Source of the DNA: a virus
Lineage: Duplodnaviria > Heunggongvirae > Uroviricota > Caudoviricetes
Direction: 5' to 3' (one strand)
DNA length: 64,000 bases
IMG/VR virus record: IMGVR_UViG_3300044678_001935
Location: 35,982 to 99,981 of that record
A program made the position numbers and the translations under genes. Shown one piece after another: positions 10,975 through 64,000 of this stretch; within the stretch, counting starts at the first letter, position 1; every line of letters starts with the position of its first letter. The notes under the pieces are model-generated. The model had not been told where the DNA came from. It did not search any database and saw only the letters and a list, made by a program, of their open reading frames with translations.

Positions 10975-13677
10975 ATGCCCGCAGCCAGAGTAAGGCAACC
11001 AAAAATAGAGGATCTTAATCTATCCCCAGTTCAATTAGCAAAGGCCCAAGACTTTGTTGAAGAGCTAGGAATAGGTGCTAAAGATCCTCTTTATTATTAT
11101 GCCTTATTGTGGTGTAAAGATAACGAAAAATCTAATGGTGATTATCTAAGCAATTCCGAAAGAAAAAAGTTTGATTCGGAAATATTAAAGAAACGTAGAG
11201 GATCAATATCACTTAAGATTCTTGGTGATATCGCATTACTGGAAAGTGTAAAAAAAGAAACTAAGAATAGACAACAGCAGACTTCAACAGATACCGCACA
11301 GCAGATTAGATCTGCTAAAACTAAGGTATTAAAAAAGAAGGCCCCGGCCAAGATTATTCCTCCTAAACTCACACTTACCATTGATAAGACGGAAGTAGAG
11401 AAAGGTGAGTCTTATACTGTTAGCTGGAAAGCCGAAAATGCTATTACTGTTTCTAGATCAATCGGATTCTATCCCCGTATTCTAGATGTAGAATTAAGCG
11501 GGTCTAGGACTATTACTGCCGATAGAATTGGTAGTAAGACTTATGGTATTACTGTAAGAAGTTCTACAGGCAGAGGTGTATTTGCTACTGCTAAAATTCA
11601 GATTGTTGAAGTAAAAACAGTTGACGATCCAGTTCAGAAACCTCAACCAAAAACTCCTGGAGCACCAAGAGTTATATCAAGAACATTATCAAGAAGTGGT
11701 GGTCCTGAAGATAGTAGTAGAGTTCTTAACGACATTAATAAATCCTTAGACACCATTCTAAAGATTCTCCAAACTCAAAACATGCTTACGCAGAGTTTGG
11801 CTAAAATGCAACTCAAAGAAGCCGAAAACGAAAGACGTAGAAAAAAAGAATCTGTTTTAGAGTCTGTTAAAAATATAAGGCAAAAAGCGATGGAGAAAGC
11901 TTTTGCTCCTATTAAAAATATTTTTGAACAGATTTGGAAATTCATTTATTACACTCTTTTAGGAAGAGCTTTTACTGAGTTTATACGATGGGCTGGTGAC
12001 CCAAAGAATTCTGGTAAAATAAAATCAATATCTAGATTTCTTAAGGATTTCTGGTTTTATATTGGTGGCGCAGCAATGTTTTTCTTAACACCTCTTGGGT
12101 CTATGGTCAAGGGTGTTTATTCAACTATTAAATTCCTTAGTGGGTTGTTACTGAAAAGCCCGCTTTTACTTGGATCTTCGGCTGTTGCTGGAATTGCAGT
12201 TTTAATGAATGAAATAACAGGACAAAGAGCTGCCGCACCACTTCAAGCAGAAAGAGCTGCAAGAGTTCAATCAGGAAAAACTATTGATATTCCTGGTGTT
12301 GATGTTATGAATGAAAAATATAAGACTCCTGGAATCGCAGGTAGAACTGGATACGGTTTATTGGGTGGTCTTGCTTATGGTGGAATAGTAACACCAGGAA
12401 CAGGCATGACAGTAAAAGGTGCTGGTGTTGATACACAACTTGTTCCAATAAAAGACGGTGGTTCTGTAGTTTTACAAAAAGGTGAAACCGTTCTACAGAA
12501 AGGCGCTAGAGAAAGAATGATGAGTGCGACAGGAATTGACCCACTTCTCTTTAACATCGGACCTAATGCCAATAAGCCAAGAACGATTGGATCTAAACTC
12601 ACCGCCATGAGCACTGGTGGTATCGTTGGTGGTAAATCTCCAAGTTTGCTCAATTCACAAGCAAGACATATTTTAAACCGACTTATTAGAGGTGGTTTAA
12701 CACCAACAGCAGCGGCTGGAATTGTTTCTAATATTGGTGTAGAAAGCGCCTATACTTATGACCCAAATACACATCAAGGTGGTGGAGGTCCCGGCAGAGG
12801 ATTAGTACAATGGGAAAAAGGTGGAAGATTTGATACTGACAATATTAATCTACAATCCTTTGCTAAGAGTAGAGGGAAGTCGTGGAATGATATGGACACT
12901 CAGATTGATTTTATATTACACGAGCTTAATACTCATCCAGAGTATAAGGCTGTTAAAAATAAAATCAATAAGAGCAAGAGTATTTCCGATGCAACGGGTA
13001 TCTTTCTTAAGGAATATGAAAAAGCTGGAACACCACACATTGAAGATAGACTTAAAATTGGTTCTGAATTAGCAAAATCTGGATGGTTAAATCCACCAAA
13101 GAAAAAAGAATCAGTTAAATCCAAAAATTCTGGCTTTAATCCTCTCGCTTTGTTAGGTGGCTTCCCTAGGCCGGTTAGAGCTGAAGAAATGTCCAAACCG
13201 ACTCGGCCTAAGGTAACACCAAAACCACAACCGAAACCCAAGTCACAGCAGCGGGCCTGGTGGGATCCTAGAGGTTTTATGGGTCTCAAAAAGGGTGGAT
13301 TCGTCAGCGGATCACTTCCTGTCGTTGGTAGTGATCCTGAAGACAGACATATGGCATTATTGAAAGCGGGTGAATACATTGTGCCTAAATTAACAGTCCA
13401 AAAATTGGGTGTAAATTTCTTTGATAATATCGTTTCAAATACCGATCCAAATTCTAATGCTGCAAGAGTATCACCAATAAGTAGAGAATATGATATTCCA
13501 ATGCCAGTATCTTCGTCTGGTGCTGGCGGCGCATTTATAACACTGCCACCGATTATGAAGAGTGCGATGGCGGATTCAACAGAAACTTCAACAACAAGCG
13601 TTCCATCTTTTTCTGCTATTTCTCCAATGGGTAATGGTGTCAGAGGAATGTTAGCTGAAATTTATGGTATCGGTTGA
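10975..13677 (+). CDS. large virion-associated protein with a tail-lysozyme-like peptidoglycan hydrolase domain (tape-measure/ejection-protein-like)
   Basis: 900 aa. It has an Ig-like N-terminal region, hydrophobic helices (FWFYIGGAAMFFLTPLG..) and the motif NIGVESAYTYDPN..GRGLVQWEKGGRF, which resembles the phage tail lysozyme ES..NP..GxGLxQW signature. A PK-rich linker is also present. Confidence 0.5.
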   Translation: MPAARVRQPKIEDLNLSPVQLAKAQDFVEELGIGAKDPLYYYALLWCKDNEKSNGDYLSNSERKKFDSEILKKRRGSISLKILGDIALLESVKKETKNRQQQTSTDTAQQIRSAKTKVLKKKAPAKIIPPKLTLTIDKTEVEKGESYTVSWKAENAITVSRSIGFYPRILDVELSGSRTITADRIGSKTYGITVRSSTGRGVFATAKIQIVEVKTVDDPVQKPQPKTPGAPRVISRTLSRSGGPEDSSRVLNDINKSLDTILKILQTQNMLTQSLAKMQLKEAENERRRKKESVLESVKNIRQKAMEKAFAPIKNIFEQIWKFIYYTLLGRAFTEFIRWAGDPKNSGKIKSISRFLKDFWFYIGGAAMFFLTPLGSMVKGVYSTIKFLSGLLLKSPLLLGSSAVAGIAVLMNEITGQRAAAPLQAERAARVQSGKTIDIPGVDVMNEKYKTPGIAGRTGYGLLGGLAYGGIVTPGTGMTVKGAGVDTQLVPIKDGGSVVLQKGETVLQKGARERMMSATGIDPLLFNIGPNANKPRTIGSKLTAMSTGGIVGGKSPSLLNSQARHILNRLIRGGLTPTAAAGIVSNIGVESAYTYDPNTHQGGGGPGRGLVQWEKGGRFDTDNINLQSFAKSRGKSWNDMDTQIDFILHELNTHPEYKAVKNKINKSKSISDATGIFLKEYEKAGTPHIEDRLKIGSELAKSGWLNPPKKKESVKSKNSGFNPLALLGGFPRPVRAEEMSKPTRPKVTPKPQPKPKSQQRAWWDPRGFMGLKKGGFVSGSLPVVGSDPEDRHMALLKAGEYIVPKLTVQKLGVNFFDNIVSNTDPNSNAARVSPISREYDIPMPVSSSGAGGAFITLPPIMKSAMADSTETSTTSVPSFSAISPMGNGVRGMLAEIYGIG

Positions 13678-17741: not shown

Positions 17742-17951
17742 ATGGAAAATATTACAAATCACATTGAAGCTGATAAAAAAGAACTGGATAATCCGGCTAT
17801 CAGTCCACAAAGAAGGCGCCATATTTCTCAAGAGCTAGAATCACTTGAGCTTTATAGAGAGAAACATCCCAATGACGATAAAGATCCTTCTCCATTGGAA
17901 CTCTTTTGTAGTGAAAATCCAGATGCCTTAGAATGCAGAATTTATGAATGA
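17742..17951 (+). CDS. small hypothetical protein
   Basis: 69-aa ORF overlapping the start of the gp5-like gene. Confidence 0.3.
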   Translation: MENITNHIEADKKELDNPAISPQRRRHISQELESLELYREKHPNDDKDPSPLELFCSENPDALECRIYE

Positions 17952-31224: not shown

Positions 31225-31442
31225 TTTCAATCTGGTTTAATGTTCTAAATGGAACCTCATCCAATCATGAATTTTTTCATTTGATTAATTCTGGTTGGTT
31301 AGAGATGAAATTTATAGAAAAGTATGGAGATAATCCATCAGAAGAAGTTTACTGGGAATGGATGTATGAACATGCTGAAACAATTTATATTTCACAACAA
31401 GACTACGATTACCTAACTCGTGATGATGTTTTAAGTGAATAA
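31206..31442 (+). CDS. small hypothetical protein
   Basis: 78-aa ORF. Confidence 0.3.
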   Translation: MVTMYLISIWFNVLNGTSSNHEFFHLINSGWLEMKFIEKYGDNPSEEVYWEWMYEHAETIYISQQDYDYLTRDDVLSE

Positions 31443-31779
31443 TTATTTTGTTCGTCGTCGGGTCGCATTGAATCCTAAAACATTACCAGAAATCTTAGAA
31501 GGTCTGGCTAATGATAAGGATTGGAGTGTTCGTATTGAGGTTGCAGAAAATTCCAACACACCACCAGAAACCTTAGAACGGCTGGCTGATGATGAGAGTT
31601 CTTTTGTTCGTAGCTGTGCTGTACGAAATCCCAACACACCACCAGAAACCTTAGCTCGTCTGGCTAATGATGAGGATTGGTATGTTCGTCTTGGGGTTGT
31701 AATTAATCCCAACACACCACAATACATTAGAACTTATCTTAAAATTAAAAAGCTTCTGAATTATTATGAGCAATTATGA
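31435..31779 (+). CDS. LRV/HEAT-like repeat protein (26-aa repeats NPNTPPETLERLANDxDxxVRxxVA)
   Basis: GTG start within GTGAATAATTATTTTG. It has three 78-nt repeats and the conserved C-terminal tail NPNTPQYIRTYLKIKKLLNYYEQL. Confidence 0.55.
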   Translation: MNNYFVRRRVALNPKTLPEILEGLANDKDWSVRIEVAENSNTPPETLERLADDESSFVRSCAVRNPNTPPETLARLANDEDWYVRLGVVINPNTPQYIRTYLKIKKLLNYYEQL

Positions 31780-32053
31780 GCTAGCGAGGAGTCGCAACAC
31801 CACACCAGAAACATTAGAACGTCTGGCTAATGATGTGAATGCCACTGTTCGTTGTGAGGTTGCAGAAAATATCAACACACCACAAGAAAGTTTAAAAAAT
31901 CTGGCAAATGATAATAATCGGACTGTTGCGTATTATGCTAGAAATAATAAAAATTATAATAATCCAATGAAACTAGAGACCTTTGAGTTTTTTGAATGGG
32001 TGGAAAATGCAAGCATAGAAGATCTAGAGAACTTTGCAAATAAAGAATTGTGA
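31766..32053 (+). CDS. LRV/HEAT-like repeat protein
   Basis: Starts MSNYELA inside the conserved junction TTATTATGAGCAATTATGA. Repeats ETLERLANDVNATVRCEVAENINTP. Confidence 0.55.
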   Translation: MSNYELARSRNTTPETLERLANDVNATVRCEVAENINTPQESLKNLANDNNRTVAYYARNNKNYNNPMKLETFEFFEWVENASIEDLENFANKEL

Positions 32054-32403
32054 AAACTATTATTGCCGGATCAAGAAATTGTAATAACATAAAAGAATTA
32101 ATAAAAGCTATTGAAGATTGTAATTGGGTAATAACAACAGTAATAAGTGGAAAAGCTAAGGGTGCTGATACATTAGGTGAATTGTGGGCCAAATATATGA
32201 AGGTTCCTATTATTGAATTTCCAGCCGATTGGAAAACTTATGGTAGATCCGCCGGCCCCCGTAGAAATATTCAAATGGCAGATAATGCAGAAGCTCTTAT
32301 TGCATTATGGGATGGTGAGAGTCGTGGAACAAAACACATGATAAGTGTAGCCGAAGAAAAACAACTATTGGTACACGTCCATAAATTCTGTTGTGACGGT
32401 TGA
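32050..32403 (+). CDS. SLOG/DUF2493 (YspA-like) domain protein
   Basis: IIAGSRNC...ISGKAKGADTLGELWA..VPIIEFPADWKTYGRSAGPRRNIQMAD..ALIALWDGESRGTKHMI matches the DUF2493 consensus GsR..GGA.GaD..A..WA...PAdW..G..AGp.RN..M. GTG start overlapping the upstream TGA. Confidence 0.6.
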   Translation: MKTIIAGSRNCNNIKELIKAIEDCNWVITTVISGKAKGADTLGELWAKYMKVPIIEFPADWKTYGRSAGPRRNIQMADNAEALIALWDGESRGTKHMISVAEEKQLLVHVHKFCCDG

Positions 32404-32424
32404 AAAACTGTCACTTCTTTTCGT

Positions 32425-32895
32425 TTGTGGGTGGTAATCGCTGTTATTCTATTCGGAGAGTTCACGAGAAGAATGTTTTCTGAAGAAGATACTGCGCGAT
32501 GTTGGGATGCACAAAATCCTAAAACCACACCAGAAACCTTAGATCGTCTGGCTAACGATAAGAGTAATCTGGTTCGTCGTAGGGTTGCAGAAAATCCCAA
32601 TACACAATCAGAAACATTAGAACGTCTAGCTGATGACGACGATTATTGGGTTCGTTTTCGGGTTGCAATTAATCCCAACGCACCACCAGAAGCCTTAGAA
32701 CGGCTGGCGAATGATAAGGATTCTTCTGTTCGTTGGTATATTGCAAGAAATCCTATCACACCACCAGAAGTTTTAGAACTTATGGCTAATGATAGGGATT
32801 GGGATGTTCGTTGGCAGGTTGCAAGAAATCCTAACACACCGCAATACATTATAACGTATCTTAAAATCAAGGAGTTTCTGAATTATTATGAGTAA
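32425..32895 (+). CDS. LRV/HEAT-like repeat protein
   Basis: Four 26-aa repeats and the C-terminal NPNTPQYIITYLKIKEFLNYYE. The true start may be the internal ATG at 32473 (MFSEEDTARC). Confidence 0.5.
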   Translation: MWVVIAVILFGEFTRRMFSEEDTARCWDAQNPKTTPETLDRLANDKSNLVRRRVAENPNTQSETLERLADDDDYWVRFRVAINPNAPPEALERLANDKDSSVRWYIARNPITPPEVLELMANDRDWDVRWQVARNPNTPQYIITYLKIKEFLNYYE

Positions 32896-33205
32896 TTATG
32901 ATCTAGCAAGAAATTCCAACACATTACCAGAAGCTTTAGATCGTCTGGCTAATGATAACGATTATTGGGTTCGTCAATATGTTGCATATAATCCATCCAC
33001 GCCACCAGAAGCTTTAGAACGTCTGGCTAATGATAAGTATCCATGTATTCGTTGTGGGGTTGCATGGAATCCCAACACACTACCAGAAATATTAGTTAAT
33101 ATGTCTAATGATAAGTATATTTATATTCGTAGCTGTGTTGCAAATAATCCCAGCACACCACAATACATTAGAACATATCTTAAACTCAACCAAAACAATT
33201 TTTGA
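32888..33205 (+). CDS. LRV/HEAT-like repeat protein
   Basis: Starts MSNYDLA at the junction TTATTATGAGTAATTATGA, overlapping the upstream stop by 8 nt. Confidence 0.55.
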   Translation: MSNYDLARNSNTLPEALDRLANDNDYWVRQYVAYNPSTPPEALERLANDKYPCIRCGVAWNPNTLPEILVNMSNDKYIYIRSCVANNPSTPQYIRTYLKLNQNNF

Positions 33206-33206: not shown

Positions 33207-34460
33207 ATGTCTTTGAGCGCCATTAAACTCCGCCCACAACAGACCGAAGCTCTTGGTATTATGGAAGAGCATAATAAAGTTCGGGTTATTGCTGCAACAT
33301 CAGCGGGTAAGAGTTACATCATCTTCTTTGATATTCATAAGAAAGCGAAGAATAAAGAGAACTCTTTGTTTGTTATCGTAAGCTCTCGTATTCTACTCCT
33401 TCAACAACTAGAGAAAGAATATTCTAAACTATTTGATAATACTCATATCGTTCATATGCACTCTGGAGAAGCCAAAAGCCGTAAGATTACAGATTATCTT
33501 GAGTTCAGTTATTGGGCAGAAGTCACCGAAGGACCTAAGATTGTTTTTGTAACTTATCATTCTCTTAAGAAGATCGTTAAGAGTGAGATGAATATTGATG
33601 CTCTATATTTGGACGAATGCCACAATGGAGCTAAGAGTCACTTCTTTGAGTATATTAAAGGAGTTGAACCTTATTGTAATAATCTTTACAGTTTCACCGC
33701 TGCTCCTCGTTATCATCCAGATCCTACAAAAAACGGTAACAACAACTCAGAAGTTTTTGGTAGTCAAGTTTATAATGTTAATACTCTTGATTTGATCAAG
33801 AATGGTTCTATTCTTCCACCAAAATCCCAAACCATGAGAATTCCTTCCGTGCGGGATAAGAAGCAGAACCCTCATGAGAGTGATTATTATACTCTTATGG
33901 ACTATCTTTATAATAACGATAATACCGAGAGAGTTCTTATTACTTGCCCCTCTTCAAGATCACTTATGGATTTGATTTGTCTTACTGATTTTTTGAAAGA
34001 TTTGAATGATAGTGGTTATGATGTATTTCATATCACATCAAAATATGGTGCCTTCCATAATAAGACAAAGATTAAACGGTCAGAATTCTTGAATCGGATG
34101 GAAGAGTATGGGGAGCAAAATAAAAAATTTGTCGTTCTCCATTATAGTATCTTGACCGAAGGTTGGAGTAATAATTCCATTCAGGCATCTATTCTCATGC
34201 GACAACAACAATTGGGTGCTACAATTCAAAATATTGGTAGGACACTACGGATTGGCCATTCAGATATTGATCGTATTCAAAAAGGGGAGTTGACTGCTGG
34301 TGATTATGATAATTATGAAAAGCCCTGTGGTAACATAATCATTCCAGTATATGAGAACGTGGGTTCTAACATTGAAGAACAGGTAGATTTTGTTATTGAC
34401 GAGGTTTTTACCAAAGGTAATTATGTTCACGATCTTATTAATGAGAAAAAGAAGTCATGA
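33207..34460 (+). CDS. superfamily 2 DEAD/DEAH-type helicase
   Basis: Motif I AATSAGKS, motif II LDECH, and a C-terminal helicase domain with QN.GRTLR. The in-frame ATG at 33207 is preferred over the track start at 33108, which overlaps the upstream gene. Confidence 0.65.
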   Translation: MSLSAIKLRPQQTEALGIMEEHNKVRVIAATSAGKSYIIFFDIHKKAKNKENSLFVIVSSRILLLQQLEKEYSKLFDNTHIVHMHSGEAKSRKITDYLEFSYWAEVTEGPKIVFVTYHSLKKIVKSEMNIDALYLDECHNGAKSHFFEYIKGVEPYCNNLYSFTAAPRYHPDPTKNGNNNSEVFGSQVYNVNTLDLIKNGSILPPKSQTMRIPSVRDKKQNPHESDYYTLMDYLYNNDNTERVLITCPSSRSLMDLICLTDFLKDLNDSGYDVFHITSKYGAFHNKTKIKRSEFLNRMEEYGEQNKKFVVLHYSILTEGWSNNSIQASILMRQQQLGATIQNIGRTLRIGHSDIDRIQKGELTAGDYDNYEKPCGNIIIPVYENVGSNIEEQVDFVIDEVFTKGNYVHDLINEKKKS

Positions 34461-34801
34461 ATAATGAAGGATTGAAAATATTACAGGCGTCTAATACCAA
34501 CACACCAACAGAAATCTTAGAACGTCTGGCTAATGATGGGGATTATTATGTTCGTTCTCGGGTTGCATCTAATCACAACACATCACCAGAAACCTTAGAA
34601 CGTCTGGCTAATGATGATTTTGTGGATGTTCTTTATTGGGTTGCAGAAAATCCCAACACTCCGTCAGAAATCTTAGAACGTTTGGCTAATGATGGTTCTT
34701 GGTTTGTTCGTTGTGGGGTTGCAAATAATCCCAATACACCTCAATACATTATAACATATCTTAAAATCAAGAAGTTTCTGAATTATTATGAGCAATTATA
34801 A
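34457..34801 (+). CDS. LRV/HEAT-like repeat protein
   Basis: ATGA overlap with the helicase stop. Repeats TEILERLANDGDYYVRSRVASNHNT.., C-terminus NPNTPQYIITYLKIKKFLNYYEQL. Confidence 0.55.
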   Translation: MNNEGLKILQASNTNTPTEILERLANDGDYYVRSRVASNHNTSPETLERLANDDFVDVLYWVAENPNTPSEILERLANDGSWFVRCGVANNPNTPQYIITYLKIKKFLNYYEQL

Positions 34802-35336
34802 TCCCAACATATCACCAGAAACATTAGCTAGTCTGGCTAATAATGATTATGGGGTTGTTCGTTTTGGGGTTGCAACAAATCCTAACACACCACCAGAAGC
34901 ATTAGAACTTCTGGCGAATGATGATCATATTGATGTTCGTCGTGGGGTTGCAGTGAATCCCAACACACCACCAGAAACATTAGAACTTCTGGCTAATGAT
35001 GAGAATGTTGGTGTTCGTGTGAGGGTTGCAGGAAATCTCAACACACTACCAGAAGCATTAGAACGTCTTGCTAATGATGGCGATTATTATGTTCGTTATT
35101 GGGTTGCATCAATTACCAACACACCACCAAAAATATTAGTTATTATGGCTAACGATAAGCATTCTCATGTTCGTAGCTGTGTTGCATCTAATACCAATAC
35201 ACCACCAGAAGCCTTAGAACGTCTGGCTAATGATAATAATTGGCTTGTTCGTTGGCAGGTTGCATATAATCCCAACACTCCCCAATACATTCTAACTTAT
35301 CTTAAAATCAAGGAGTTTCTGAATTATTATGAGTAA
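34788..35336 (+). CDS. LRV/HEAT-like repeat protein
   Basis: 182 aa with six repeats, starting MSNYNPN at the conserved junction. Confidence 0.55.
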   Translation: MSNYNPNISPETLASLANNDYGVVRFGVATNPNTPPEALELLANDDHIDVRRGVAVNPNTPPETLELLANDENVGVRVRVAGNLNTLPEALERLANDGDYYVRYWVASITNTPPKILVIMANDKHSHVRSCVASNTNTPPEALERLANDNNWLVRWQVAYNPNTPQYILTYLKIKEFLNYYE

Positions 35337-35338
35337 TT

Positions 35339-35581
35339 ATGAGTAATTATGATCCCCACACATCAACAGAAACATTAGATCGTCTGGCTAATGATGAAGA
35401 TTTGGAAGTTCGTTGTCAGGTTGCACAAAATCCCAATACACCACCAGAAGCATTATCACGTCTGGCTGATGATAAGAGTTATTATGTTCGTTCTGGGGTT
35501 ACATTTAATCCCAACACACCTCAATACATTCTAACTTATCTTAAAATCAAGAAGTTTCTGAATTATTATAAATTATTATGA
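35339..35581 (+). CDS. LRV/HEAT-like repeat protein
   Basis: Preceded by a duplicated junction ATGAGTAATT x2 (35329-35348) that creates a 5-codon mini-ORF MSNYE. Confidence 0.5.
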   Translation: MSNYDPHTSTETLDRLANDEDLEVRCQVAQNPNTPPEALSRLADDKSYYVRSGVTFNPNTPQYILTYLKIKKFLNYYKLL

Positions 35582-35910
35582 CTAATTACGATATAGCAAA
35601 AAATCTCAATACATCAATAGAAACCTTAGAACGTCTGGCTAATGATGACGATTGTTGTGTTCGTTGTGGGGTTGCAGAAAATCCCAACACACCACCAGAA
35701 GCATTAGCACGTCTGGCGAATGATAATAGTTATTATGTTCGTGGCTGGGTTGCAAGAAATCCCAATACACCACCAGAAGCCTTAGAACGTCTGGCTAATG
35801 ATAATAATTGGCTTGTTCGTTGGCAGGTTGCATTTAATCCCAACACCCCCCAATACATTCTAACTTATCTCAAAGTTAGACAGTTTCTGAGGTGTCACAC
35901 TAGAACCTAA
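35578..35910 (+). CDS. LRV/HEAT-like repeat protein
   Basis: Starts MTNYDIAKN and carries four repeats. Confidence 0.55.
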   Translation: MTNYDIAKNLNTSIETLERLANDDDCCVRCGVAENPNTPPEALARLANDNSYYVRGWVARNPNTPPEALERLANDNNWLVRWQVAFNPNTPQYILTYLKVRQFLRCHTRT

Positions 35911-39470: not shown

Positions 39471-40007
39471 TTGGCTATGTATGAAGATTATTCTAAAAAA
39501 CAATTAGCTCTTCTGGCTAATGATAAACATTATTATGTTCGTTGTGGTGTTGCAAATAATCCCAACACACAACCAGAAACATTAGATCGTTTAGCGAACG
39601 ATGAGCATCTGCATGTTCGTAGATATGTTGCACGAAATCCAAACACACCACCAGAAGCCTTAGATCGTCTGGCTAATGATGAGGATTCTTGGGTTCGTCT
39701 TGGGGTTGCAAGACATCCCAACACACCACCAGAAGTTTTAGAATGTTTGGCTAATGATAAGGATTATTCTGTTCGTTGTTGGGTTGCGAGAAATCCCAAC
39801 ACAACACCAGAAACCTTAGATCGTCTGGCTAATGATGAGCATTATTATGTTCGTACGCCGGTTGCATTTAATCCCAACACACCACCAAAAAGCTTAGAAC
39901 GTCTGGCTAATGATGAGGATTGGTATGTTCGTTTTGGAGTTACAATAAATCCCAGCACACCTCAATACATTAAAACCTATCTTAAAATTTTAAAATTATT
40001 CAAATGA
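39471..40007 (+). CDS. LRV/HEAT-like repeat protein
   Basis: 178 aa with six 26-aa repeats. C-terminus NPSTPQYIKTYLKILKLFK. Confidence 0.55.
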   Translation: MAMYEDYSKKQLALLANDKHYYVRCGVANNPNTQPETLDRLANDEHLHVRRYVARNPNTPPEALDRLANDEDSWVRLGVARHPNTPPEVLECLANDKDYSVRCWVARNPNTTPETLDRLANDEHYYVRTPVAFNPNTPPKSLERLANDEDWYVRFGVTINPSTPQYIKTYLKILKLFK

Positions 40008-40580: not shown

Positions 40581-41010
40581 ATCTTATTTGAAACCTCGCA
40601 TTTTGGACCAAGCAATCGCTGTGGCTATGGTAAGTAACGGATCTAAAAGAATTGGTGCGATTCTTCTTAAAAAGAATAAGATTGTCGCGGCAGCCTGTAA
40701 CAATTACGACAAATCAGATGCGTTTCAATTTAGGGCTTCCCAAAGAGCCTCTATCATATACAATAAACCAGAATATTCAAAACGTGTTTACGGGCACGCT
40801 GAAACCCTGGCTCTTAAAAAAATTAACGATGGTGACGCTGATACGATTGTAGTTTGCAGACTTTCTGGTAAACACAATTCTAAAAAACTGAGATTGGCTA
40901 GACCATGTAGAATTTGTTCTCATCTTATTCAAAATTTCTACCCCTCAATTCGGTATATCCATTATTCCACCGAAAGAGGATTTTTCTACGAGACTTGGGG
41001 TCTTATCTAA
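40567..41010 (+). CDS. zinc-dependent cytidine/deoxycytidylate (CDA-fold, TadA-like) deaminase
   Basis: HAETLAL (HAE zinc/catalytic motif) and PCRICSHLI (PCxxC zinc ligands) at the spacing typical of the CMP/dCMP deaminase fold. Confidence 0.55.
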   Translation: MIVLESYLKPRILDQAIAVAMVSNGSKRIGAILLKKNKIVAAACNNYDKSDAFQFRASQRASIIYNKPEYSKRVYGHAETLALKKINDGDADTIVVCRLSGKHNSKKLRLARPCRICSHLIQNFYPSIRYIHYSTERGFFYETWGLI

Positions 41011-41276
41011 TGAAAAAACTTTCTCTTAAAGAAACTCACACTCTTTTGAAGAAATACAATCATGTTATTTTTGACGAAGAAACCTCTGGGTTAAATTCAA
41101 AACTTAATGACGATGGGTTAATTATTACGTTAAAAAGTGGTAACAATAAGAGTGTTATGTTGTTTCCCCATGAAAAAAATGAGTCTGTTGAGATCACTAA
41201 AACCACAGTAACTCTTTATGATAGTATGGGTTGGGTTCATAATTTCATCCCCCTTATGAATGCCGACTTGATTTGA
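41010..41276 (+). CDS. small hypothetical protein
   Basis: In-frame ATG of track ORF 40914..41276, overlapping the deaminase stop by 1 nt (TAATG). Confidence 0.35.
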   Translation: MKKLSLKETHTLLKKYNHVIFDEETSGLNSKLNDDGLIITLKSGNNKSVMLFPHEKNESVEITKTTVTLYDSMGWVHNFIPLMNADLI

Positions 41277-41282
41277 ATTATT

Positions 41283-41609
41283 ATGAGTAATTATGAGCTA
41301 GCGAGGAGACGTAACACTCCACCAGAAGCATTATCACGTCTGGCTAATGATAAGGATTCTTATGTTCGTCGTGGGGTTGCATGGAATCCCAAGACCCCTC
41401 TAGAAACCTTAGATCGTCTGGCTAATGATAAGGATTCTTGGGTTCGTGGTGAGGTTGCATTTAATCCCAACACACCACCAGAAGTTTTAGAACGTCTGGC
41501 TAATGACGAGTATCGGTATGTTCGTCGTTTGGTTGCCAAAAATCCCAACACGCCACAATACATTAGAACATATCTTAAAATTACCGAGGTTTTGAATTAT
41601 TATGAGTAA
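41283..41609 (+). CDS. LRV/HEAT-like repeat protein
   Basis: MSNYELARRRNTPPEALSRLANDKDSYVRRGVA.. with C-terminal NPNTPQYIRTYLKITEVLNYYE. Confidence 0.55.
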   Translation: MSNYELARRRNTPPEALSRLANDKDSYVRRGVAWNPKTPLETLDRLANDKDSWVRGEVAFNPNTPPEVLERLANDEYRYVRRLVAKNPNTPQYIRTYLKITEVLNYYE

Positions 41610-41928
41610 TTATGAGCTAGCAGATAATCCCAACACCCCACCAGAAACATTAGAAAGTCTAGCGAATGACGATAATTGGTATGTTCGTAGCTGTGTGGCA
41701 TTTAATCCCAACACACCACCAGAAGCTTTAGAACGTCTGGCTGATGATGAGGATTTAAATGTTCGTTATTATGTTGCAAGAAATCCCAACACATTACCAG
41801 AAACCTTAGCTCGTCTGGCTAAGGATGAGGATTGTCGTGTTCGTCGTTGGGTTGCAAGAAATCCTAACACACCACAATACATCAAAGATTATCTTAAAAT
41901 CAAGGGGTTTTTGGGTTGTTATGAGTAA
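41602..41928 (+). CDS. LRV/HEAT-like repeat protein
   Basis: Starts at the conserved 8-nt overlap junction; four repeats. Confidence 0.55.
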   Translation: MSNYELADNPNTPPETLESLANDDNWYVRSCVAFNPNTPPEALERLADDEDLNVRYYVARNPNTLPETLARLAKDEDCRVRRWVARNPNTPQYIKDYLKIKGFLGCYE

Positions 41929-42100
41929 TATTGAACTAGCAGGAAATCCCAACACACCACCAGAAACCTTAGATCTTCTGGCTAATGATAATATTTGGAA
42001 TGTTCGTTATTTGGTTGCAAAAAATCCCAACACTCCACAATACATTAGAACATACCTTAAACTTCAAAGGACGATTGGTGGACTGTCCACAAGAAGTTGA
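41921..42100 (+). CDS. short LRV/HEAT-like repeat protein
   Basis: MSNIELAGNPNTPPETLDLLANDNIWNVRYLVAKNPNTPQYIRTYLK. The in-frame ATG sits at the junction TTATGAGTAATATTGA; the track ORF starts upstream at 41825. Confidence 0.4.
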   Translation: MSNIELAGNPNTPPETLDLLANDNIWNVRYLVAKNPNTPQYIRTYLKLQRTIGGLSTRS

Positions 42101-43895: not shown

Positions 43896-44295
43896 AAATA
43901 AATTTTGGGACCTTGAATCTAATCTAAATGAGATTGAATCCAATTATTTGGATCTTGAAGAGCAGTTAGCACATTTTGTTACAGATTCGCTTCTACTTAT
44001 TGAAAACTTAGATCTTGAATCTTTGGCAATACCAATATTCGCTCAGAGTCTTATTATTCGTAATTACCGAGATTACAAATATCAAGATTTATTAAAAAAA
44101 TTACTGGTATCTAAAAATTTCACACCAGGCCTAATATACCGCACAAGAGAAATTTTTACAGAAAAAGAGTTTGAACCTTTTTTACAATACTTACTACAAA
44201 ATCCAAATTTAGACCAGTATGCAAGAGAATACTACACCAACCTAAAAAAATCTTATGACCGAAGACTTACTAGGGAACAAACTAAAAAAGCTTGA
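43876..44295 (+). CDS. hypothetical protein
   Basis: 139-aa ORF. Confidence 0.35.
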   Translation: METHEIENKFWDLESNLNEIESNYLDLEEQLAHFVTDSLLLIENLDLESLAIPIFAQSLIIRNYRDYKYQDLLKKLLVSKNFTPGLIYRTREIFTEKEFEPFLQYLLQNPNLDQYAREYYTNLKKSYDRRLTREQTKKA

Positions 44296-45025
44296 GCAAC
44301 TGGAGGCTGGGCGTTATGCCGATCCTTTTCTTCCACTCATGGCCAGAATTGATGGTAAGTGCTTCAGTAATTTCACTAGAAGTCTAAAACGTCCTTATGA
44401 CGAGAGATTTATTCGGCTTATGATAGCAACGACAAAATATCTTGTTGAAGAAAGTGAGGCTATTTTAGGTTATTGCCAATCTGATGAAATTACTCTTTAT
44501 TGGTACTTAGATAAAGAAAACTTTTCCAATAGAGAATTCTGGTTTCGTGGTAAGTTTCAGAAATTAACTTCTGTCTTAGCCTCAACTGCTAGCTCTTATT
44601 TTTGTGGTAATCTCGCACATTATTTACCAGAAAAGACTGGTAACTATCCAACCTTTGATACAAGAGTTTGGAGTGTTCCCGATTTGGAATGCGTTTATGA
44701 GAATTTTCTATGGCGGTTTAAGGATGCGAGAAAAAATTCTGTATCCATGTATGCAAGACATTTCTTTTCACCAAACCAGCTTTTTAAAAAGTCCTGTGAA
44801 GAAATGAAAGAAATGTTAGCGGTTATTCGTAGGCCGTGGGAAGAATTACCTAAATTCTTTACCGATGGGACGTATATTAAAAGACAAAAATTCTTATTGT
44901 CTCCTTATGATCCTAGATGGAATGACGTTCCCTCTCAATACCGGCCAACAAAACCTGTTGAGCGTACATTGGTTTCCGTTTGGGAACCAGAGACAACGGT
45001 ATCACTTGATTGGTTCACTTATTAA
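44255..45025 (+). CDS. Thg1-like protein (tRNA-His guanylyltransferase family 3'-5' nucleotidyltransferase)
   Basis: MARIDGKCFSNF..KRPYDERFIRLM aligns with the Thg1 region VRLDGRNFHRF..KPNDSRALQLM. GYCQSDEITLYW aligns with AYGQSDEYSFVF, SVLASTASSYF with HVASQFASSY, and the C-terminal FDTRVWSVPD...ENFLWRFKDARKNSVSMYARHFF with FDGRVVVYPS..LSWRQADCHINNLYNTVFW. Confidence 0.75.
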   Translation: MTEDLLGNKLKKLEQLEAGRYADPFLPLMARIDGKCFSNFTRSLKRPYDERFIRLMIATTKYLVEESEAILGYCQSDEITLYWYLDKENFSNREFWFRGKFQKLTSVLASTASSYFCGNLAHYLPEKTGNYPTFDTRVWSVPDLECVYENFLWRFKDARKNSVSMYARHFFSPNQLFKKSCEEMKEMLAVIRRPWEELPKFFTDGTYIKRQKFLLSPYDPRWNDVPSQYRPTKPVERTLVSVWEPETTVSLDWFTY

Positions 45026-45426: not shown

Positions 45427-45609
45427 ATGCACACCATAGAACTTTTTACTTTTAAAGACGCTATACATCTTTTTAACATAGAAATGCAGATTGTTCCCAT
45501 TGCTGGAGATTATATTAAGTATAATTACATCTTATACAAAGTTATTGAAAGAGGTTTTGAAGTTTTTCCGGCTACAACTATTCGTCTTTACGTAGAAGAA
45601 ACCAAATGA
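45427..45609 (+). CDS. small hypothetical protein
   Basis: In-frame ATG within track ORF 45391..45609, downstream of repeat copy B. Confidence 0.3.
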   Translation: MHTIELFTFKDAIHLFNIEMQIVPIAGDYIKYNYILYKVIERGFEVFPATTIRLYVEETK

Positions 45610-46223
45610 ATTACACCGAAGAACAAGTTAAAGAAATCGTCAGAAATGTCATTTCTGAGATGCAATCTGTAAATGTTAAGGATCTTACACTTTACCAAAA
45701 AAGGGGTGTTGCAAGAAATCCCAATACAGCACCAGAAGTCTTAGACCGTCTGGCTAATGATAAGGATTCTTATGTTCGTTGGCAGGTTGCAGAAAATCCC
45801 AACACACCACCAGAGACCTTAGAACGTCTGGCTAATGATGACGATTATTGTGTTCGTTGGAGTGTTGCATTTAATCCCAACACACCACCAGAAACATTAG
45901 CTCGTCTAGCTAATGATGTGGATTATTGTGTTCGTACGCCGGTTGCATTTAATCCCAACACACCACCAGAAGTTTTAGAACGTCTGGCTAATGATAACGA
46001 TTCTGTGGTTCGTTATTATGTTGCAAGAAATCCCAACACATTAACAGAAACTTTAGAACGTTTGGCTAATGATAAGAGTTCTTCTGTTCGTGAATGTGTT
46101 GTACAAAATCCTAACTACAAACGGAAATCCAACAATAAGATCACTATTGAGCTTACAGAAGAACAGTTGTCTCAATTACGAAAATGTGCAGACATGTTCT
46201 CTGGTCTTTTAGGATCTGTATAA
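45606..46223 (+). CDS. LRV/HEAT-like repeat protein
   Basis: 205 aa with six 26-aa repeats, a unique N-terminal 30 aa and a unique C-terminal 35 aa (no NYYE tail). Confidence 0.55.
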   Translation: MNYTEEQVKEIVRNVISEMQSVNVKDLTLYQKRGVARNPNTAPEVLDRLANDKDSYVRWQVAENPNTPPETLERLANDDDYCVRWSVAFNPNTPPETLARLANDVDYCVRTPVAFNPNTPPEVLERLANDNDSVVRYYVARNPNTLTETLERLANDKSSSVRECVVQNPNYKRKSNNKITIELTEEQLSQLRKCADMFSGLLGSV

Positions 46224-50794: not shown

Positions 50795-51312
50795 CTGAAC
50801 AAGAGCAAAAACTATTAAACAAGTTTCTTTCCTCTATTGAAGAAGACGAAAAGTTCTTCAAAGAGATTATGAACCGAACAGATGAAGACGCAAGACTTCT
50901 TCAATGGATTGTCAATAATAATATCAATCCTTACGGTGTTTTTCCTTATTATATTGCTGGCAGTCTTTCCGAATTACAATCCTTTGTTGCCATCTACATT
51001 AAGATGACGTATCAAAGAAAGCACTGTGAAATTAATTACGTCAACGTTGAAAGAACAAGTAGCTCACATGATCATGTTGATAACCTAGGACCGAGAGTAG
51101 TTTTTGTTGGTAAATGGGAAGATGATTTTCATGCGCTAGTTAAAAAAGAATTAAATCTACCCGACGATGAGCTACCATGGGAATCATACACTTATGACTT
51201 TGACATCTTAGAAAACGTAGACGCCTTTATTGAAACATACAATAGGGTTGAAGATTATCACAAGAATCGTTATGAAGAAAACAGTAAGCTTGCGGATAGG
51301 TGGTTATCATGA
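50791..51312 (+). CDS. hypothetical protein
   Basis: 173-aa ORF whose stop TGA overlaps the lysS ATG (ATGA). Confidence 0.4.
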
Positions 51313-52787
51313 ATGAAGAAACATCACAATTTTTATCAGCCAGGTTGGATAAGATTTCAGAACTACAGAAAATAGGGCAAGTTGCATATGCTAATTCTTT
51401 TCACCCTACAATTAAAGCATTAGAATTACATAAGAATTATTTTAATCTGGAAAATGGTTCTGAATGTGATGATAATGTTGTTATAGCTGGTCGTATTATC
51501 GCAAGAAGAGTATTCGGTAAGTTGTCATTTTTTACTCTTTCCGATGACAGTGGAACAATTCAGCTTTATATTGAGAACGCCATCGTTGGTTCCGATATTG
51601 TTTCCTTAACCGATGTCGGCGACTGGATCGGCGCCACCGGCACCCTGCGGCGCACCGACCGGGGCGAGCTTTCGGTCAAGGTGCGCGACTGGACGATGCT
51701 CAGCAAGTCGCTTCAGCCCCTGCCCGACAAGTGGCATGGCCTGGCGGACGTGGAGAAGCGCTACCGGCAGCGCTATCTCGATCTGATCGTCTCCCCCCAC
51801 ACCCGCGAAACTTTCCGGCGACGTGCCATTTTGATTAGAACTATTCGCAATTGGCTTGACTCGCGGGAATTTTTGGAGATTGAAACTCCTATTCTACAAA
51901 CCGAAGTTGGCGGAGCCGAGGCCAAACCTTTCTCAACATATCATAACACTCTAGATCTATCATTAACTCTAAGAATTGCGACCGAGTTGCACCTTAAGAG
52001 GATGATTGTTGGTGGTTTTGAAAGAGTTTATGAGTTGGGTCGTATATTTCGTAATGAAGGTCTAAGCACCCGCCATAATCCAGAGTTTACAACCGTTGAG
52101 ATTTATCAGGCATATGCAGATTATAATGATATGATGATTTTAACAGAAAATCTCATATCTACTTGCGCAGAGACAGTTTGTGGTTCTACTGTAATAGTTT
52201 ATCAAGATGAAAAAATTGATCTAACTCCTCCTTGGAATAAATGTACAATGCACGAATTGGTTTTTGAGCATACTGGTCTTGATTTTCATCAATTTTCGTC
52301 AAGAACCGATGCCGCTAATGCTATGGAAACTATTGGATTGGTTGTTCCTGATAGTGCCGATTCCGTTGGTCGGTTATTAAACGAAGCCTTTGAACAAAGA
52401 GTTGAAAAACAGCTCATTCAACCGACTTTTGTTTTAGATTATCCTGTTGAAATTTCTCCACTGGCCCGTTCTCATAGAGAAAAACCGGAATTGGTTGAAA
52501 GATTTGAATTATTCATCTTTGGTCGTGAAATTGCCAATGCCTTTAGCGAACTCACCGATCCTTTAGAACAGAGAAAAAGATTAGAAGAACAACAAACCCG
52601 CCGCAATAATGGCGATCAAGAGGCTCACACTATTGATGAAGACTTTTTAAACGCACTTGAAATTGGAATGCCGCCAACCGGAGGACTAGGTATTGGTATA
52701 GACAGATTGACAATGTTACTTACGGATAGTCCGTCTATTCGTGATGTTATCGCTTTTCCTTTAATGCGCCCAGAGGACAAAACATGA
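51309..52787 (+). CDS. lysS: lysyl-tRNA synthetase (class II)
   Basis: N-terminal OB anticodon-binding region ([23 protein letters not shown]), motif 2 [23 protein letters not shown] and motif 3 [18 protein letters not shown] at 51309; the track lists a GTG at 51300. Confidence 0.85.
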
Positions 52788-53185: not shown

Positions 53186-53428
53186 ATGAGTAAACTTACA
53201 ATTAATGAAGAAGAATTCTTTGATAAAGAAGGAGCACTTAAAACAGTAGTTGAATATCTTCAAAAAATGTTAAACGAAGGTTGGAAAGATGTTGTTTGTG
53301 AGGGGACGCTTTACCGATCTAGGGAAGAAAACGATGATGAATACGCAGATCGTCTTGCTATAGAAGCACGAGAAAAAGAACGGCGCCGCAAACAGTACGA
53401 AAAACTAAGAAAAGAATTTGAGGAATGA
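53186..53428 (+). CDS. small hypothetical protein
   Basis: 80-aa ORF with AGGAG upstream. Confidence 0.35.
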   Translation: MSKLTINEEEFFDKEGALKTVVEYLQKMLNEGWKDVVCEGTLYRSREENDDEYADRLAIEAREKERRRKQYEKLRKEFEE

Positions 53429-62738: not shown

Positions 62739-63155
62739 ATGCTTATTGATGATTCGTTTATTTACATTCTTAAAAGCGATGCGAGGAAAATAGTCGCTCA
62801 AATTATTACAGTTCCTGAAGTTTTAGCTCGTTTAGCTAAGGATAATAATTCTAATGTTCGTTGTCATGTTGCATGGAATCGCAACACACCACCAGAAGCA
62901 TTAGAACGTCTGGTTAATGATGATGATGATTGGGTTCGTTATTATGTTGCACAAAATCCCAACACATCAACAGAAACCTTAGAACGTTTGGCTAATGATA
63001 GGAGTTCTTCTGTTCGTGCGAATGCTACATGTAATCCCAATTATAAAAAACCTAACACCATTCATTTCACAAATGAGCAAATGGTAGCACTAAAATCTTT
63101 GATTGAAAGTGCTAGTAACCCACATCTTCAGGAATTTCTTAAAAATGCTGATTGA
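62739..63155 (+). CDS. LRV/HEAT-like repeat protein
   Basis: 138 aa. Repeats PEVLARLAKDNNSNVRCHVAWNRNTPPEALERLVNDDDDWVRYYVAQNPNT. Unique C-terminus. Confidence 0.5.
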   Translation: MLIDDSFIYILKSDARKIVAQIITVPEVLARLAKDNNSNVRCHVAWNRNTPPEALERLVNDDDDWVRYYVAQNPNTSTETLERLANDRSSSVRANATCNPNYKKPNTIHFTNEQMVALKSLIESASNPHLQEFLKNAD

Positions 63156-63589
63156 CCTTTCAGATGGAATTTTTAACCATAGATATGTATCGTTATGAGG
63201 TTGCAAATAATCCAAACACATCACCAGAAACTTTAGAACGTCTTGCTAATGATAAAGATTGGCGTGTTCGTTATTATGTTGCAAGAAATCCCAACACACC
63301 ACCAGAAACCTTAAAGTGTCTGGCTAATGATGTGTATTCTGATATACGTTGTGGGGTTGCACTGAATCCCAATACACCAACAGAAACAGTAGATCGTCTG
63401 GCTAATGATGAGTATCTGCATGTTCGTAGATATGTTGCACAAAATCCCAACACACCACCAGAAGCTTTAGATCGTCTGGCTAATGATGTGGATTGGGGGG
63501 TTCGTGGATGGGTTGCAAATAATCCTAACACACCACAATACATTAGAACCTATCTTAAACTCAAGGAGTTTCTGAATTATTATGAGTAA
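63152..63589 (+). CDS. LRV/HEAT-like repeat protein
   Basis: 145 aa with five repeats. C-terminus NPNTPQYIRTYLKLKEFLNYYE. The true start is uncertain (several in-frame Met). Confidence 0.5.
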   Translation: MTFQMEFLTIDMYRYEVANNPNTSPETLERLANDKDWRVRYYVARNPNTPPETLKCLANDVYSDIRCGVALNPNTPTETVDRLANDEYLHVRRYVAQNPNTPPEALDRLANDVDWGVRGWVANNPNTPQYIRTYLKLKEFLNYYE

Positions 63590-63842
63590 TTATGATCTTG
63601 ATCTAGATCTTGCATGGAATCCCAACACACCCCCAGAAACATTGGATCTTCTGGCTAATGATGTGGATTGGATTGTTCGTTGGTATGTTGCAGAAAATCC
63701 CAACACACAATCAGAAACCTTAGAACGTCTGGCTAATGATAGCGATTATTGTGTTCGTTGGTGTGTTGCAACAAATCCCAACACACCACAATATATTCTA
63801 ACATATCTTAAAATCAAAAAGTTTTTGAATTGTTATGAGTAA
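63582..63842 (+). CDS. LRV/HEAT-like repeat protein
   Basis: MSNYDLDLDLAWNPNTPPETLDLLANDVDWIVRWYVAENPNT.. at the conserved junction. Confidence 0.55.
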   Translation: MSNYDLDLDLAWNPNTPPETLDLLANDVDWIVRWYVAENPNTQSETLERLANDSDYCVRWCVATNPNTPQYILTYLKIKKFLNCYE

Positions 63843-64000
63843 TTTTGATCTTGCAAAAAATCCCAACACACCACCAGAAGTCTTAGACCGTCTGGCTGAT
63901 GATGAGGATTTAAATTTTCGTTATTATGTTGCATGGAATTCCAACACGAAAACAGAAACCTTAGAACGTTTGGCTAATGATGGGGATACTAAGGTTCGTG
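63839..64000 (+). CDS. LRV/HEAT-like repeat protein (3' truncated by the window end)
   Basis: MSNFDLAKNPNTPPEVLDRLADDEDLNFRYYVAWNSNTKTETLERLANDGD.. continues beyond position 64000. Confidence 0.45.

Follow-up and report, generated by a model that had tools for sequence, protein, structure and literature searches.

The window, by which is meant the whole 64,000-nucleotide stretch that was analysed (positions 35,982 to 99,981 of the Caudoviricetes record IMGVR_UViG_3300044678_001935), carries at 32881-32903 of its plus strand the sequence AATTATTATGAGTAATTATGATC, a joint at which one small gene ends and the next begins. This joint is a boundary between tandem paralogous genes for helical-repeat proteins of the LRV type (PF01816). 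The upstream open reading frame (ORF), 32425-32895, ends ..FLNYYE-TAA, and the downstream ORF, 32888-33205, begins ATG AGT AAT TAT GAT in the +1 frame; the octamer ATGAGTAA at 32888-32895 is common to both, giving an overlap of 8 nt. The upstream frame of the joint reads AAT TAT TAT GAG TAA (N-Y-Y-E-stop) and the downstream frame ATG AGT AAT TAT GA. A preliminary description of this DNA had proposed a stop/start junction with 8 shared nucleotides at this position, and both the ORF layout and a search with a 19-mer from the joint agree with it.

The 19-mer TTATTATGAGTAATTATGA has 12 matches in the window at up to three mismatches, every one of them on the plus strand, where dinucleotide-preserving shuffles gave a mean of 0.06 and a maximum of 1. 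Five copies are exact (32883, 35324, 41278, 41597 and 63577). The five further sites at which the junction had been said to recur are all real matches: those at 31761 (one mismatch) and 34783 (two) have TAA changed to CAA, 35324 is exact and is accompanied by an overlapping 10-nt tandem duplicate at 35334, and 41597 and 63577 are exact. Four more sites were found, namely 41278 (exact), 41916 (three mismatches), and 35573 and 63830 (two each). The 8-nt core ATGAGTAA by itself is mildly enriched (10 copies against 4 expected), so the signal resides in the longer module; furthermore, the joint copies are paralogous and not independent, so that what the 19-mer statistic demonstrates is the repetition of a module and not convergent recurrence. 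In the ORF maps each copy lies between, or heads, small plus-strand genes of the LRV family, the exact copy at 41278 heading an array with no family gene upstream. When aligned, the junctions are near-identical sequences linking consecutive members of one family.

The family has 17 genes in the window, occupying about 6 kb or 9-10% of the 64 kb, in three arrays (31.4-35.9, 41.3-42.1 and 62.7-64 kb) with solitary genes at 39477 and 45606. The genes and joints are as follows, the plus strand being marked (+).

31435..31779 (+): LRV gene, 114 residues, GTG start, tail ..KKLLNYYEQL-stop; also a JGI gene call; 8 nt (GTGAATAA) are shared with the non-family gene upstream
31761..31779 (+): joint variant TTATTATGAGCAATTATGA, TAA changed to CAA; overlap of 14 nt, 31766-31779
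31766..32053 (+): LRV gene, 95 residues, MSNYELA head, one clear repeat (PF01816, 28.7 bits); tail of the second type, NNKNYNNP.. and then a helical end
32050-32403: gene for a SLOG protein, 117 residues
32473..32895 (+): LRV gene, 140 residues, four repeats, tail ..KEFLNYYE-stop (PF01816, E=7.4e-26); the ORF is open from 32425
32883..32901 (+): exact 19-mer joint, with ATGAGTAA at 32888-32895 in both stop and start
32888..33205 (+): LRV gene, 105 residues, the last before the helicase gene; diverged tail ..YLKLNQNNF-stop
34457..34801 (+): LRV gene, 114 residues, atypical head MNNEGLK, tail ..NYYEQL-stop; its start overlaps the helicase stop (ATGA)
34783..34801 (+): joint variant, TAA changed to CAA; overlap of 14 nt, 34788-34801
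34788..35336 (+): LRV gene, 182 residues, six repeats (PF01816, E=3.5e-37)
35324..35352 (+): joint in which 10 nt (ATGAGTAATT) are duplicated in tandem; its first ATG opens a five-codon mini-ORF, MSNYE-stop (35329-35346), and the real start is at 35339
35339..35581 (+): LRV gene, 80 residues, two repeats, tail ..NYYKLL-stop; identical to protein P0067
35563..35591 (+): joint with another 10-nt insertion (TTATTATAAA TTATTATGAC); 4-nt ATGA overlap, 35578-35581
35578..35910 (+): LRV gene, 110 residues, array-terminal; diverged tail ..RQFLRCHTRT-stop
39477..40007 (+): solitary LRV gene, 176 residues, six repeats, tail ..YLKILKLFK-stop
41278..41296 (+): exact 19-mer at an array head; the upstream gene, 40914-41276, is non-family and its stop lies 7 nt before the ATG
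41283..41609 (+): LRV gene, 108 residues, three repeats; the gene that was modelled
41597..41615 (+): exact joint; overlap of 8 nt, 41602-41609
41602..41928 (+): LRV gene, 108 residues
41916..41934 (+): diverged joint TTGTTATGAGTAATATTGA; overlap of 8 nt, 41921-41928
41921..42100 (+): LRV gene, 59 residues, one repeat, diverged tail
45606..46223 (+): LRV gene, 205 residues, five repeats, second tail type
62739..63155 (+): LRV gene, 138 residues, second tail type
63164..63589 (+): LRV gene, four repeats, tail ..KEFLNYYE-stop; the ORF is open from 63152
63577..63595 (+): exact joint; overlap of 8 nt, 63582-63589
63582..63842 (+): LRV gene, 86 residues; identical to protein P0073
63830..63848 (+): joint variant TTGTTATGAGTAATTTTGA; overlap of 8 nt, 63835-63842
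63835..64000 (+): start of a further LRV gene (MSNFDLAKNPNTPPE..), continuing past the window end

The products of the neighbouring genes include a SLOG protein and a helicase, together with a phosphoesterase and a deaminase. Beyond the window, five extra family genes were found on an IMG/VR contig (L013) and eight on a 70-kb contig (L005) from the same JGI sample (3300044858) as a 94.9-kb contig discussed below; the whole genome probably carries at least 30 LRV genes.

An LRV gene of this family consists of a head (the N-terminal cap, MSNY[DE]LA), one to six copies of the 26-residue repeat PPETLERLANDxDxxVRxxVAxNPNT, and a tail (the C-terminal capping helix, NPNTPQYIxTYLKIKxFLNYYE). Four typical cassettes scored 89.2, 56.5, 124.7 and 79.3 bits against PF01816 and the one-repeat cassette at 31766-32053 scored 28.7, the curated cut-off being 21.6 bits. 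An AlphaFold2 model of the 41283 cassette (pLDDT 96.5) predicts eight helices arranged in hairpins, with the head helix (H3-8) as N-cap and the tail helix (H92-107) as a long C-cap. In a Foldseek comparison of this model with the PDB the top match was 1LRV (42% identity, rmsd 2.2 Å), and after it the predicted fold matched the artificial alphaRep binders 3LTJ, 3LTM and 4JW2, with TM-scores of about 0.6-0.69.

Across the 47 repeats of the window the framework codons are nearly invariant, synonymous sites included: Arg17 is CGT in 46 of 46 and Val16 is GTT in 44 of 44. The same residue is also written with different codons according to its position, Leu5 as TTA (45 copies) and Leu8 as CTG (37 copies), Ala9 as GCT and Ala21 as GCA, Asn23 as AAT and Asn25 as AAC. 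Such position-specific fixation points to common descent with homogenisation and not to codon bias. Six positions of the repeat are hypervariable (12, 14, 15, 18, 19 and 22; entropy 2.6-3.5 bits); W, Y, C, R, G and S are common at these sites, and all three codon positions vary. The i, i+3/4, i+7 spacing of positions 15, 18/19 and 22 would place them on one face of the second helix.

A second tail type, NPNYK(K/R).. or NPNYKKP.. followed by a short helical segment (for example ..TNEQMVALKSLIESASNPHLQEFLKNAD), is found in the genes at 31766-32053, 45606-46223 and 62739-63155, and genes with this tail never precede a ATGAGTAA joint. The counterpart of the 62739 gene at L004, one of two loci (with L008) on the 244,048-bp ENA scaffold KRAE22-1 scaffold_3, has the same head, more repeats and a first-type tail followed by the joint, from which it appears that tails are exchangeable.

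Long minus-strand ORFs are also present inside LRV genes (31443-31727, 32643-32870, 41360-41563 and 63274-63543), all starting MYCGVLG, which is what the tail codons ..CCAACACACCACAATACAT give when reverse-complemented. They were rejected as genes, being to all appearance a side effect of the codon pattern in the repeats.

The spacing of stop and start at the joints varies within narrow bounds. A strict 8-nt overlap is present at five starts (32888, 41602, 41921, 63582 and 63835). The genes starting at 31766 and 34788 share 14 nt with an upstream gene that ends ..YYEQL-TGA; here a change of AGT to AGC converts the upstream TAA to CAA, so that the upstream gene continues to the next stop, TGA. 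The start at 35339 lies 2 nt past the upstream stop, and that at 35578 overlaps by the 4 nt ATGA. The joint carries ATTATGA twice, 10 nt apart, and there are two independent +10-nt slippage products, 35324/35334 and 35563/35573, the latter of a type shared with the related locus L009.

How far the joint stands out from its surroundings was assessed in an alignment of 15 simple joints, taken from the window and from close relatives. The mean conservation per column reaches 0.93 at -6..+5 and 0.97 at -30..-19, with 0.83-0.91 for those framework segments that lie nearest to the joint and 0.68-0.78 for the outer bins, which contain variable codons. The joint is thus conserved no better than the adjoining tail or the repeat framework. 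It is therefore best described as one piece of a tail/head module some 75 nt long, in cassettes whose nucleotides are conserved throughout. In one frame the 19 bases supply the last residues and the stop of the upstream protein, and in the other the start codon and opening residues of the next, preceded by an AU-rich leader. The whole tail/head module would be copied at each duplication or conversion of a cassette, and the motif would recur because it travels with the cassette; the double reading would then hold the bases of the joint in place.

The distribution of tails and heads was examined in the window and relatives. Wherever one of the genes examined ends in one of the tails YE-stop, YEQL-stop, YELL-stop or YKLL-stop, the next start overlaps the stop or lies within 2 nt of it, and that start belongs to a family head in all but two cases, L012 and L013, where ..RILRCYE-stop overlaps a non-family gene via ATGAATAA. 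Array-terminal genes retain ..YLK(IK.FLN) and then diverge (..NQNNF-stop, ..QRTIGGLSTRS-stop, ..FLRCHTRT-stop, ..FLNYNTR-stop, ..FLNFST-stop). Since these tails diverge after about FLN, the capping helix to about that point is a property of the protein, and the final Y-E-stop goes with ATGAGTAA. Heads are also found with no cassette upstream, at 41278 (after an unrelated gene) and, behind unrelated sequence, at 3832 and 8484 of L005 and at 4857 of L008.

The joint is therefore read as a gene boundary in tandem paralog arrays, with a -8 nt stop/start overlap inherited as a module, that probably links the cassettes into a translationally coupled chain. A ribosome terminating at the UAA would sit 5 nt beyond the AUG and could re-initiate there, and the cassette genes, which lack a Shine-Dalgarno sequence, would in this way be translated as a coupled chain. 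Across 1,695 prokaryotic genomes no overlap classes are commoner than -4, -1 and -8 nt, -8 ranking third, and all three are taken as predictive of termination-reinitiation, with coupling dropping steeply within about 14-20 nt (PMC10666635). The 8-nt overlap belongs to this reinitiation-associated class, so coupling may reasonably be inferred. Coupled pairs have been defined as co-directional, with stop and start overlapping or within about -8 to +10 nt of each other (PMC10666635); set against this spacing, the joints of the window lie at -8 (five), -14 (two), -4 (one) and +2 (one).

Tight juxtaposition extends beyond this one joint. The plus-strand overlaps of the window as a whole comprise 11 of -4, 6-7 of -8, four of -1 and three of -14 nt, and two of the 8-nt overlaps are outside the LRV family (17944-17951, ATGAATGA; 53186-53193, ATGAGTAA), so the genome uses this type of overlap outside the LRV family as well. 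Of 51 pairs of adjacent LRV genes counted on IMG/VR contigs, in the window and in close relatives, 30 overlap by ATGA (-4), eight by 8 nt and two by 14 nt, and each LRV subfamily has its own stereotyped joint (..HLKTL-stop/MNKLEQA, ..KEHPTL-stop/MKDQNLL, ..YKQEQ-stop/MKYEQK). It follows that close stop/start juxtaposition is general to phage LRV arrays, ATGAGTAA being the version of this clade.

No conserved Shine-Dalgarno sequence was found at the joints; AAGGAG is present 13 nt from the ATG at some joints only, and elsewhere the position reads AAGAAG, AAAAAG, ACCGAG or AAGGGG. RNA folding around the starts revealed no consistent occluding structure (z-scores -1.95 to +0.06, not significant). 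A consensus scan of the plus strand at 32415-33205 and 34457-35910, in itself weak evidence, found no terminator-like site.

Several points weigh against a coupled chain held together by this joint. Overlaps of 8 nt re-initiate less efficiently than those of 4 or 1 nt (PMC10666635), and co-transcription is no more than suggested by the terminator scan. The AU-rich starts without Shine-Dalgarno sequences could be used independently. In two joints a 10-nt insertion has abolished the 8-nt overlap and neither gene is visibly harmed, so the exact geometry is not essential. Finally, the nucleotide conservation may in part be neutral identity by descent and not constraint.

The most probable of the alternatives is one in which the joint has no function of its own, the cassettes are initiated independently at their AU-rich, Shine-Dalgarno-less starts, and the motif is kept by copying and dual reading. 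This would account for a joint no better conserved than tail or framework, for synonymous sites being conserved across whole cassettes and not at the joint alone, for heads without an upstream cassette, and for the tolerance of the +10-nt and TAA-to-CAA variants. Against it, in all variants the distance from stop to start stays between -14 and +2 nt, and unrelated LRV subfamilies also keep -4 overlaps (the 30 of 51 pairs), which suggests selection for tight juxtaposition. Independent initiation is a possible explanation, though a good deal less probable than the coupled chain.

Differences in cassette number between genomes, which the preliminary description had envisaged, are indeed seen: gene and repeat numbers differ between near-identical genomes, at this locus and elsewhere. 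A 7.3-kb contig of ENA ERZ22067504, which was read from gene coordinates and one protein (P0066), encodes a SLOG protein (117 residues) identical to that of the window, and yet its LRV genes are laid out as 89-105-[helicase]-114-160-162 residues against 140-105-[helicase]-114-182-80-110 in the window; its overlaps are 8, 14 and 8 nt and its reading frames are intact. P0066 (89 residues) has the same head and tail as the 140-residue gene of the window with two repeats in place of four, and the metagenomic protein P0002 likewise shares head and tail with the product of the 45606 gene with three repeats in place of five. At L009 the helicase gene is 93% identical to that of the window and is followed by different cassettes, the first with two repeats and the head MIVMSNYDLA and the next resembling the 35578 cassette.

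The contig L005 is syntenic with L008, and in the 1 kb that precedes the LRV block the two share 98.8% identity, with nearest flanks at 97-100%. The block itself is 1025 nt (three cassettes) in L005 and 550 nt (two cassettes) in L008, and their first cassettes are 79.7% identical, with 32 non-synonymous against 10 synonymous codon differences. The window and L004 match at 97% as far as 63017, a point within an LRV repeat, beyond which the identity disappears. In a more distant relative, L007, an LRV gene at 11260-11919 encodes 219 residues, and its counterpart in L006 encodes 167; in the L007 gene one 26-residue repeat (NPNTPPKVLELLATDEDSSVRYCVAIH) is perfectly duplicated in tandem, which from its sequence is a recent change in repeat number.

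The preliminary description had also proposed that the joint provides short homology for unequal crossover. The variation in cassette number bears out one part of this; the other part, the place of exchange, does not fit, since the longest matches and most of the mapped breakpoints are in the repeats. The longest exact matches between paralogs of the window are 72, 54 and 40 nt, all within repeats, and the 39 nt of tail and joint rank fourth. A perfect tract of 116 nt is shared by the dispersed cassettes at 34457 of the window (34491-34606) and at 10741 of L005 (10763-10878); it spans one full set of hypervariable codons, lies within repeats and is diverged on both flanks. This tract has the appearance of a gene-conversion-like mosaic, and the two contigs are probably of one genome. 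Recombination thus seems to fall mostly inside the 26-codon repeats, with the joint occasionally involved. T4-type phages recombine efficiently on short homology, which would explain the pattern without a special site.

That the joint is nevertheless a preferred recombination site, whose short homology adds, deletes and shuffles cassettes by unequal crossover, is unlikely. In its favour, cassette number varies between near-identical genomes, and some apparent scars extend to the joint. At 9930-10008 of L004 a 28-residue stub, MNKSEIATDPNTPPETLDRLANDKNYYE followed by a stop, lies directly upstream of a normal MSNY cassette; in it half a repeat, ..LANDKNYY, is fused onto the joint via the 10-nt microhomology AATTATTATG, and it looks like a cassette deleted from mid-repeat to joint. 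Furthermore, the first cassette of L009 has a canonical head behind a joint-like leader (ATCGTTATGAGTAAT), the array head at 41278 retains TGAATTATT upstream of its ATG, and the joint has both the paired ATTATGA and two independent +10-nt slippage products. Set against this are the longer paralog matches of the repeats, the 116-nt tract inside repeats, and the placing of the differences between genomes: the 475 bp by which L005 and L008 differ fall within diverged repeats and not joint to joint, homology between the window and L004 ends within a repeat, and orthologues differ by whole repeats with heads and tails kept (P0066, P0002, L006/L007). Moreover, no integrase was found among the scanned ORFs of the window, and no inverted-repeat site at the joint.

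Two known classes of variable system were also considered and rejected. Integron-type cassettes do not apply, the boundary being coding sequence without a consistent hairpin or attC-like site and the scanned window ORFs including no integrase. The arrays are also unlikely to be the target of a diversity-generating retroelement, where variation would be confined to template adenines, as all three codon positions vary at the hypervariable sites; general Pfam scans of about 40 window ORFs contained no reverse transcriptase, and no template-repeat search was made.

It is very improbable that the differences in cassette number are artefacts of short-read metagenome assembly. The LRV arrays of L004 do contain runs of N, indicating regions that are hard to assemble. 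Nevertheless, the layout of the window recurs in at least one other record, a 34.7-kb NCBI contig (GCA_041443065.1), and another 100-kb NCBI/JGI contig has the same proteins; the 94.9-kb contig of JGI 3300044858 equals the window over 20 kb at 100% and may be the window's own source. The layout of KRAE22-1 scaffold_3 recurs in ERZ21966605 contigs, and variant layouts keep open frames and the canonical overlaps (8, 14 and 8 nt). Layouts reproduced in other assembly records argue against assembly artefacts.

A programmed +1 frameshift or read-through at AAUUAUUAUGAGUAA, yielding two-cassette fusion proteins, can hardly be sustained. The downstream frame is +1 relative to the upstream one, stop codons occupying the A site are known to promote frameshifting, and AAGGAG lies upstream at some joints; the product of such a shift would carry the joint-spanning peptide ..FLNIIMSNYDLA... 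However, inspection of AAU UAU UAU GAG UAA shows no P-site codon that re-pairs in +1 (UAU as AUU/AUG; GAG as AGU), and the suggestion that AAUUAUUAUGAG is slippery falls, since re-pairing in that frame is impossible both for tRNA-Tyr on UAU and for tRNA-Glu on GAG. AAGGAG, at a distance of 13 nt, is not conserved, there is no consistent stimulatory RNA structure (z-scores as above), and read-through is blocked by a second in-frame stop, TGA, two codons past the TAA (TAA TTA TGA). The fusion products that had been envisaged also find no counterpart, with a clean tail-head fusion seen in none of 120 homologues. The joint resembles prfB-type +1 frameshift sites in having a +1 second frame and a stop at the shift point, but unlike them it has no slippery P-site codon, no conserved and well-spaced Shine-Dalgarno-like stimulator and no fused homologues.

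A deletion of 10 nt in the joint would fuse cassettes in frame (..FLNYYDLA..), and again none of the 120 homologues is a clean example. One orthologue group, to which five of the 120 belong (P0016, P0047, P0081, P0098 and P0101; locus L008 8339-8470), starts MYKPK..KTQYLLSYLKNTWILLNNRIFDLARNPNT; at their N-terminus a diverged tail-like stretch runs in frame into a head-like stretch, with 57 nt against the canonical 58 nt, and repeats follow. By its sequence this group may be the relic of an old tail-head fusion.

The idea that tail and joint form a sigma-70-type promoter (TTAAAA, 17 nt, TATTAT) giving one transcript per cassette is equally hard to credit: a consensus scan does place a 9/12 match on six joints, but the -10 hexamer overlaps the ATG, so the transcript would begin past the start codon, the region shows no enrichment in promoter-like matches (49 against 40.7 +/- 6.3 expected), and the match follows from AT-rich coding sequence.

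The genome that carries the arrays is best explained as that of a T4-like jumbo phage, a distant relative of the Synechococcus phages B3 and B23, and its host is probably a freshwater cyanobacterium. Genes of T4 type in the window encode gp32, PhoH, a gp53-like protein, a T4 baseplate protein and tail-lysozyme proteins; the nearest isolates are B3 and B23 (about 244 kb), with a gp32 identity of just 54%. L013 overlaps the first 1481 bases of the window at 100% identity, and KRAE22-1 scaffold_3 is a close relative, with 97% identity across the CysRS-ligase region. Two tRNAs (tRNA-Met and tRNA-Pro) and two aminoacyl-tRNA synthetases are encoded in the window.

The window also has an unusually rich tRNA/NAD set (Thg1, a class II aminoacyl-tRNA synthetase, CysRS, NMNAT-Nudix, NADAR and NAMPT), with coordinates 44255-45025, 51300-52787, 55176-56234, 56403-56951 and 60361-61710. 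In the product of the NAMPT gene (56992-59343, 783 residues) the NAPRTase domain is matched in two stretches, and a tblastn comparison with cyanophage NAMPTs aligned in two pieces covering only about 60% of the protein, which suggests that some 300 residues have been inserted, possibly as an intein or another domain.

Searches for the family and its joint elsewhere returned little. A near-identity search of the locus against isolate phages gave no match, and tblastn of an LRV cassette against isolate phage records matched Moorella phage MTATph1 only, with none in B3 or B23. The joint pattern gave two matches in IMG/VR, both by chance and in unrelated genes, none in the JGI metagenome collection, and a single chance match in GTDB genomes, in a Bacillaceae genome; a metagenome scan anchored on the helicase found one short contig only. 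A homologue search with the 182-residue cassette, dominated by repeat words, did not bring up the variants of 160 and 162 residues. In PHROGs the sole match of the LRV proteins is phrog_20647, a family without assigned function, and a PADLOC defence search had no match. The searchable literature held nothing relevant on LRV or HEAT repeat families in phages, and this LRV family is not described there.

The joint itself is an ordinary overlapping stop/start of a known class, and the proteins belong to a known family. It resembles termination-reinitiation pairs (Huber et al. 2019, PMC6728339; 2023, PMC10666635) in being co-directional with the stop 5 nt past the start, in its phase 1 overlaps with -14 and -4 variants, and in not needing a Shine-Dalgarno sequence. 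Coupled pairs are enriched for subunits of heteromeric complexes, whereas the phage chain, whose coupling is deduced from its layout, links paralogs of a variable family and reuses one joint many times.

1LRV, the leucine-rich repeat variant protein of Azotobacter vinelandii, has an N-terminal Fe-S domain and 24-residue repeats. The phage proteins are like it in their Pfam LRV match and predicted helix-helix solenoid, and unlike it in being 59-205 residues long, with their own N- and C-caps, no other domain and a period of 26 residues. With the alphaReps, which are HEAT-like artificial binders, they share a fixed framework and a small number of hypervariable positions, which sit on the second helix of the repeat; they differ in being natural and in repeat length and caps.

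A comparable expansion is known in Bacillus phage G, with about 35 zinc-ribbon copies in a lineage-specific expansion (PMC7824862). As there, many tandem and dispersed small binding-domain paralogs occur in a jumbo virus, and copy number here differs between close relatives, as in the paralog families of large viruses; the present family differs in its LRV fold and in varying at two levels, whole genes and 26-codon repeats. Poxviruses possess ankyrin-repeat families and 'genomic accordions', and the LRV family also resembles these ankyrin-repeat families.

It is tentatively suggested that the LRV arrays are a phage repertoire of small binders, diversified by recombination against putative changing host targets, and a natural counterpart of the alphaReps; this is the less probable reading of the family. 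On such a view, the identical framework codons would let phage homologous recombination swap repeats and cassettes in register, the conserved tail/head joint would keep new arrangements translatable as a coupled chain, and the hypervariable, aromatic-rich face would bind host targets, for example those of defence or takeover. Fixed framework codons, hypervariable positions and variation in number together form the pattern expected of arms-race proteins. The joint adds little to this, and the value of the finding lies in the unusually large and variable LRV family behind it; if the proteins do bind host factors, they would be a compact natural system in which a virus diversifies its binders by recombination alone.

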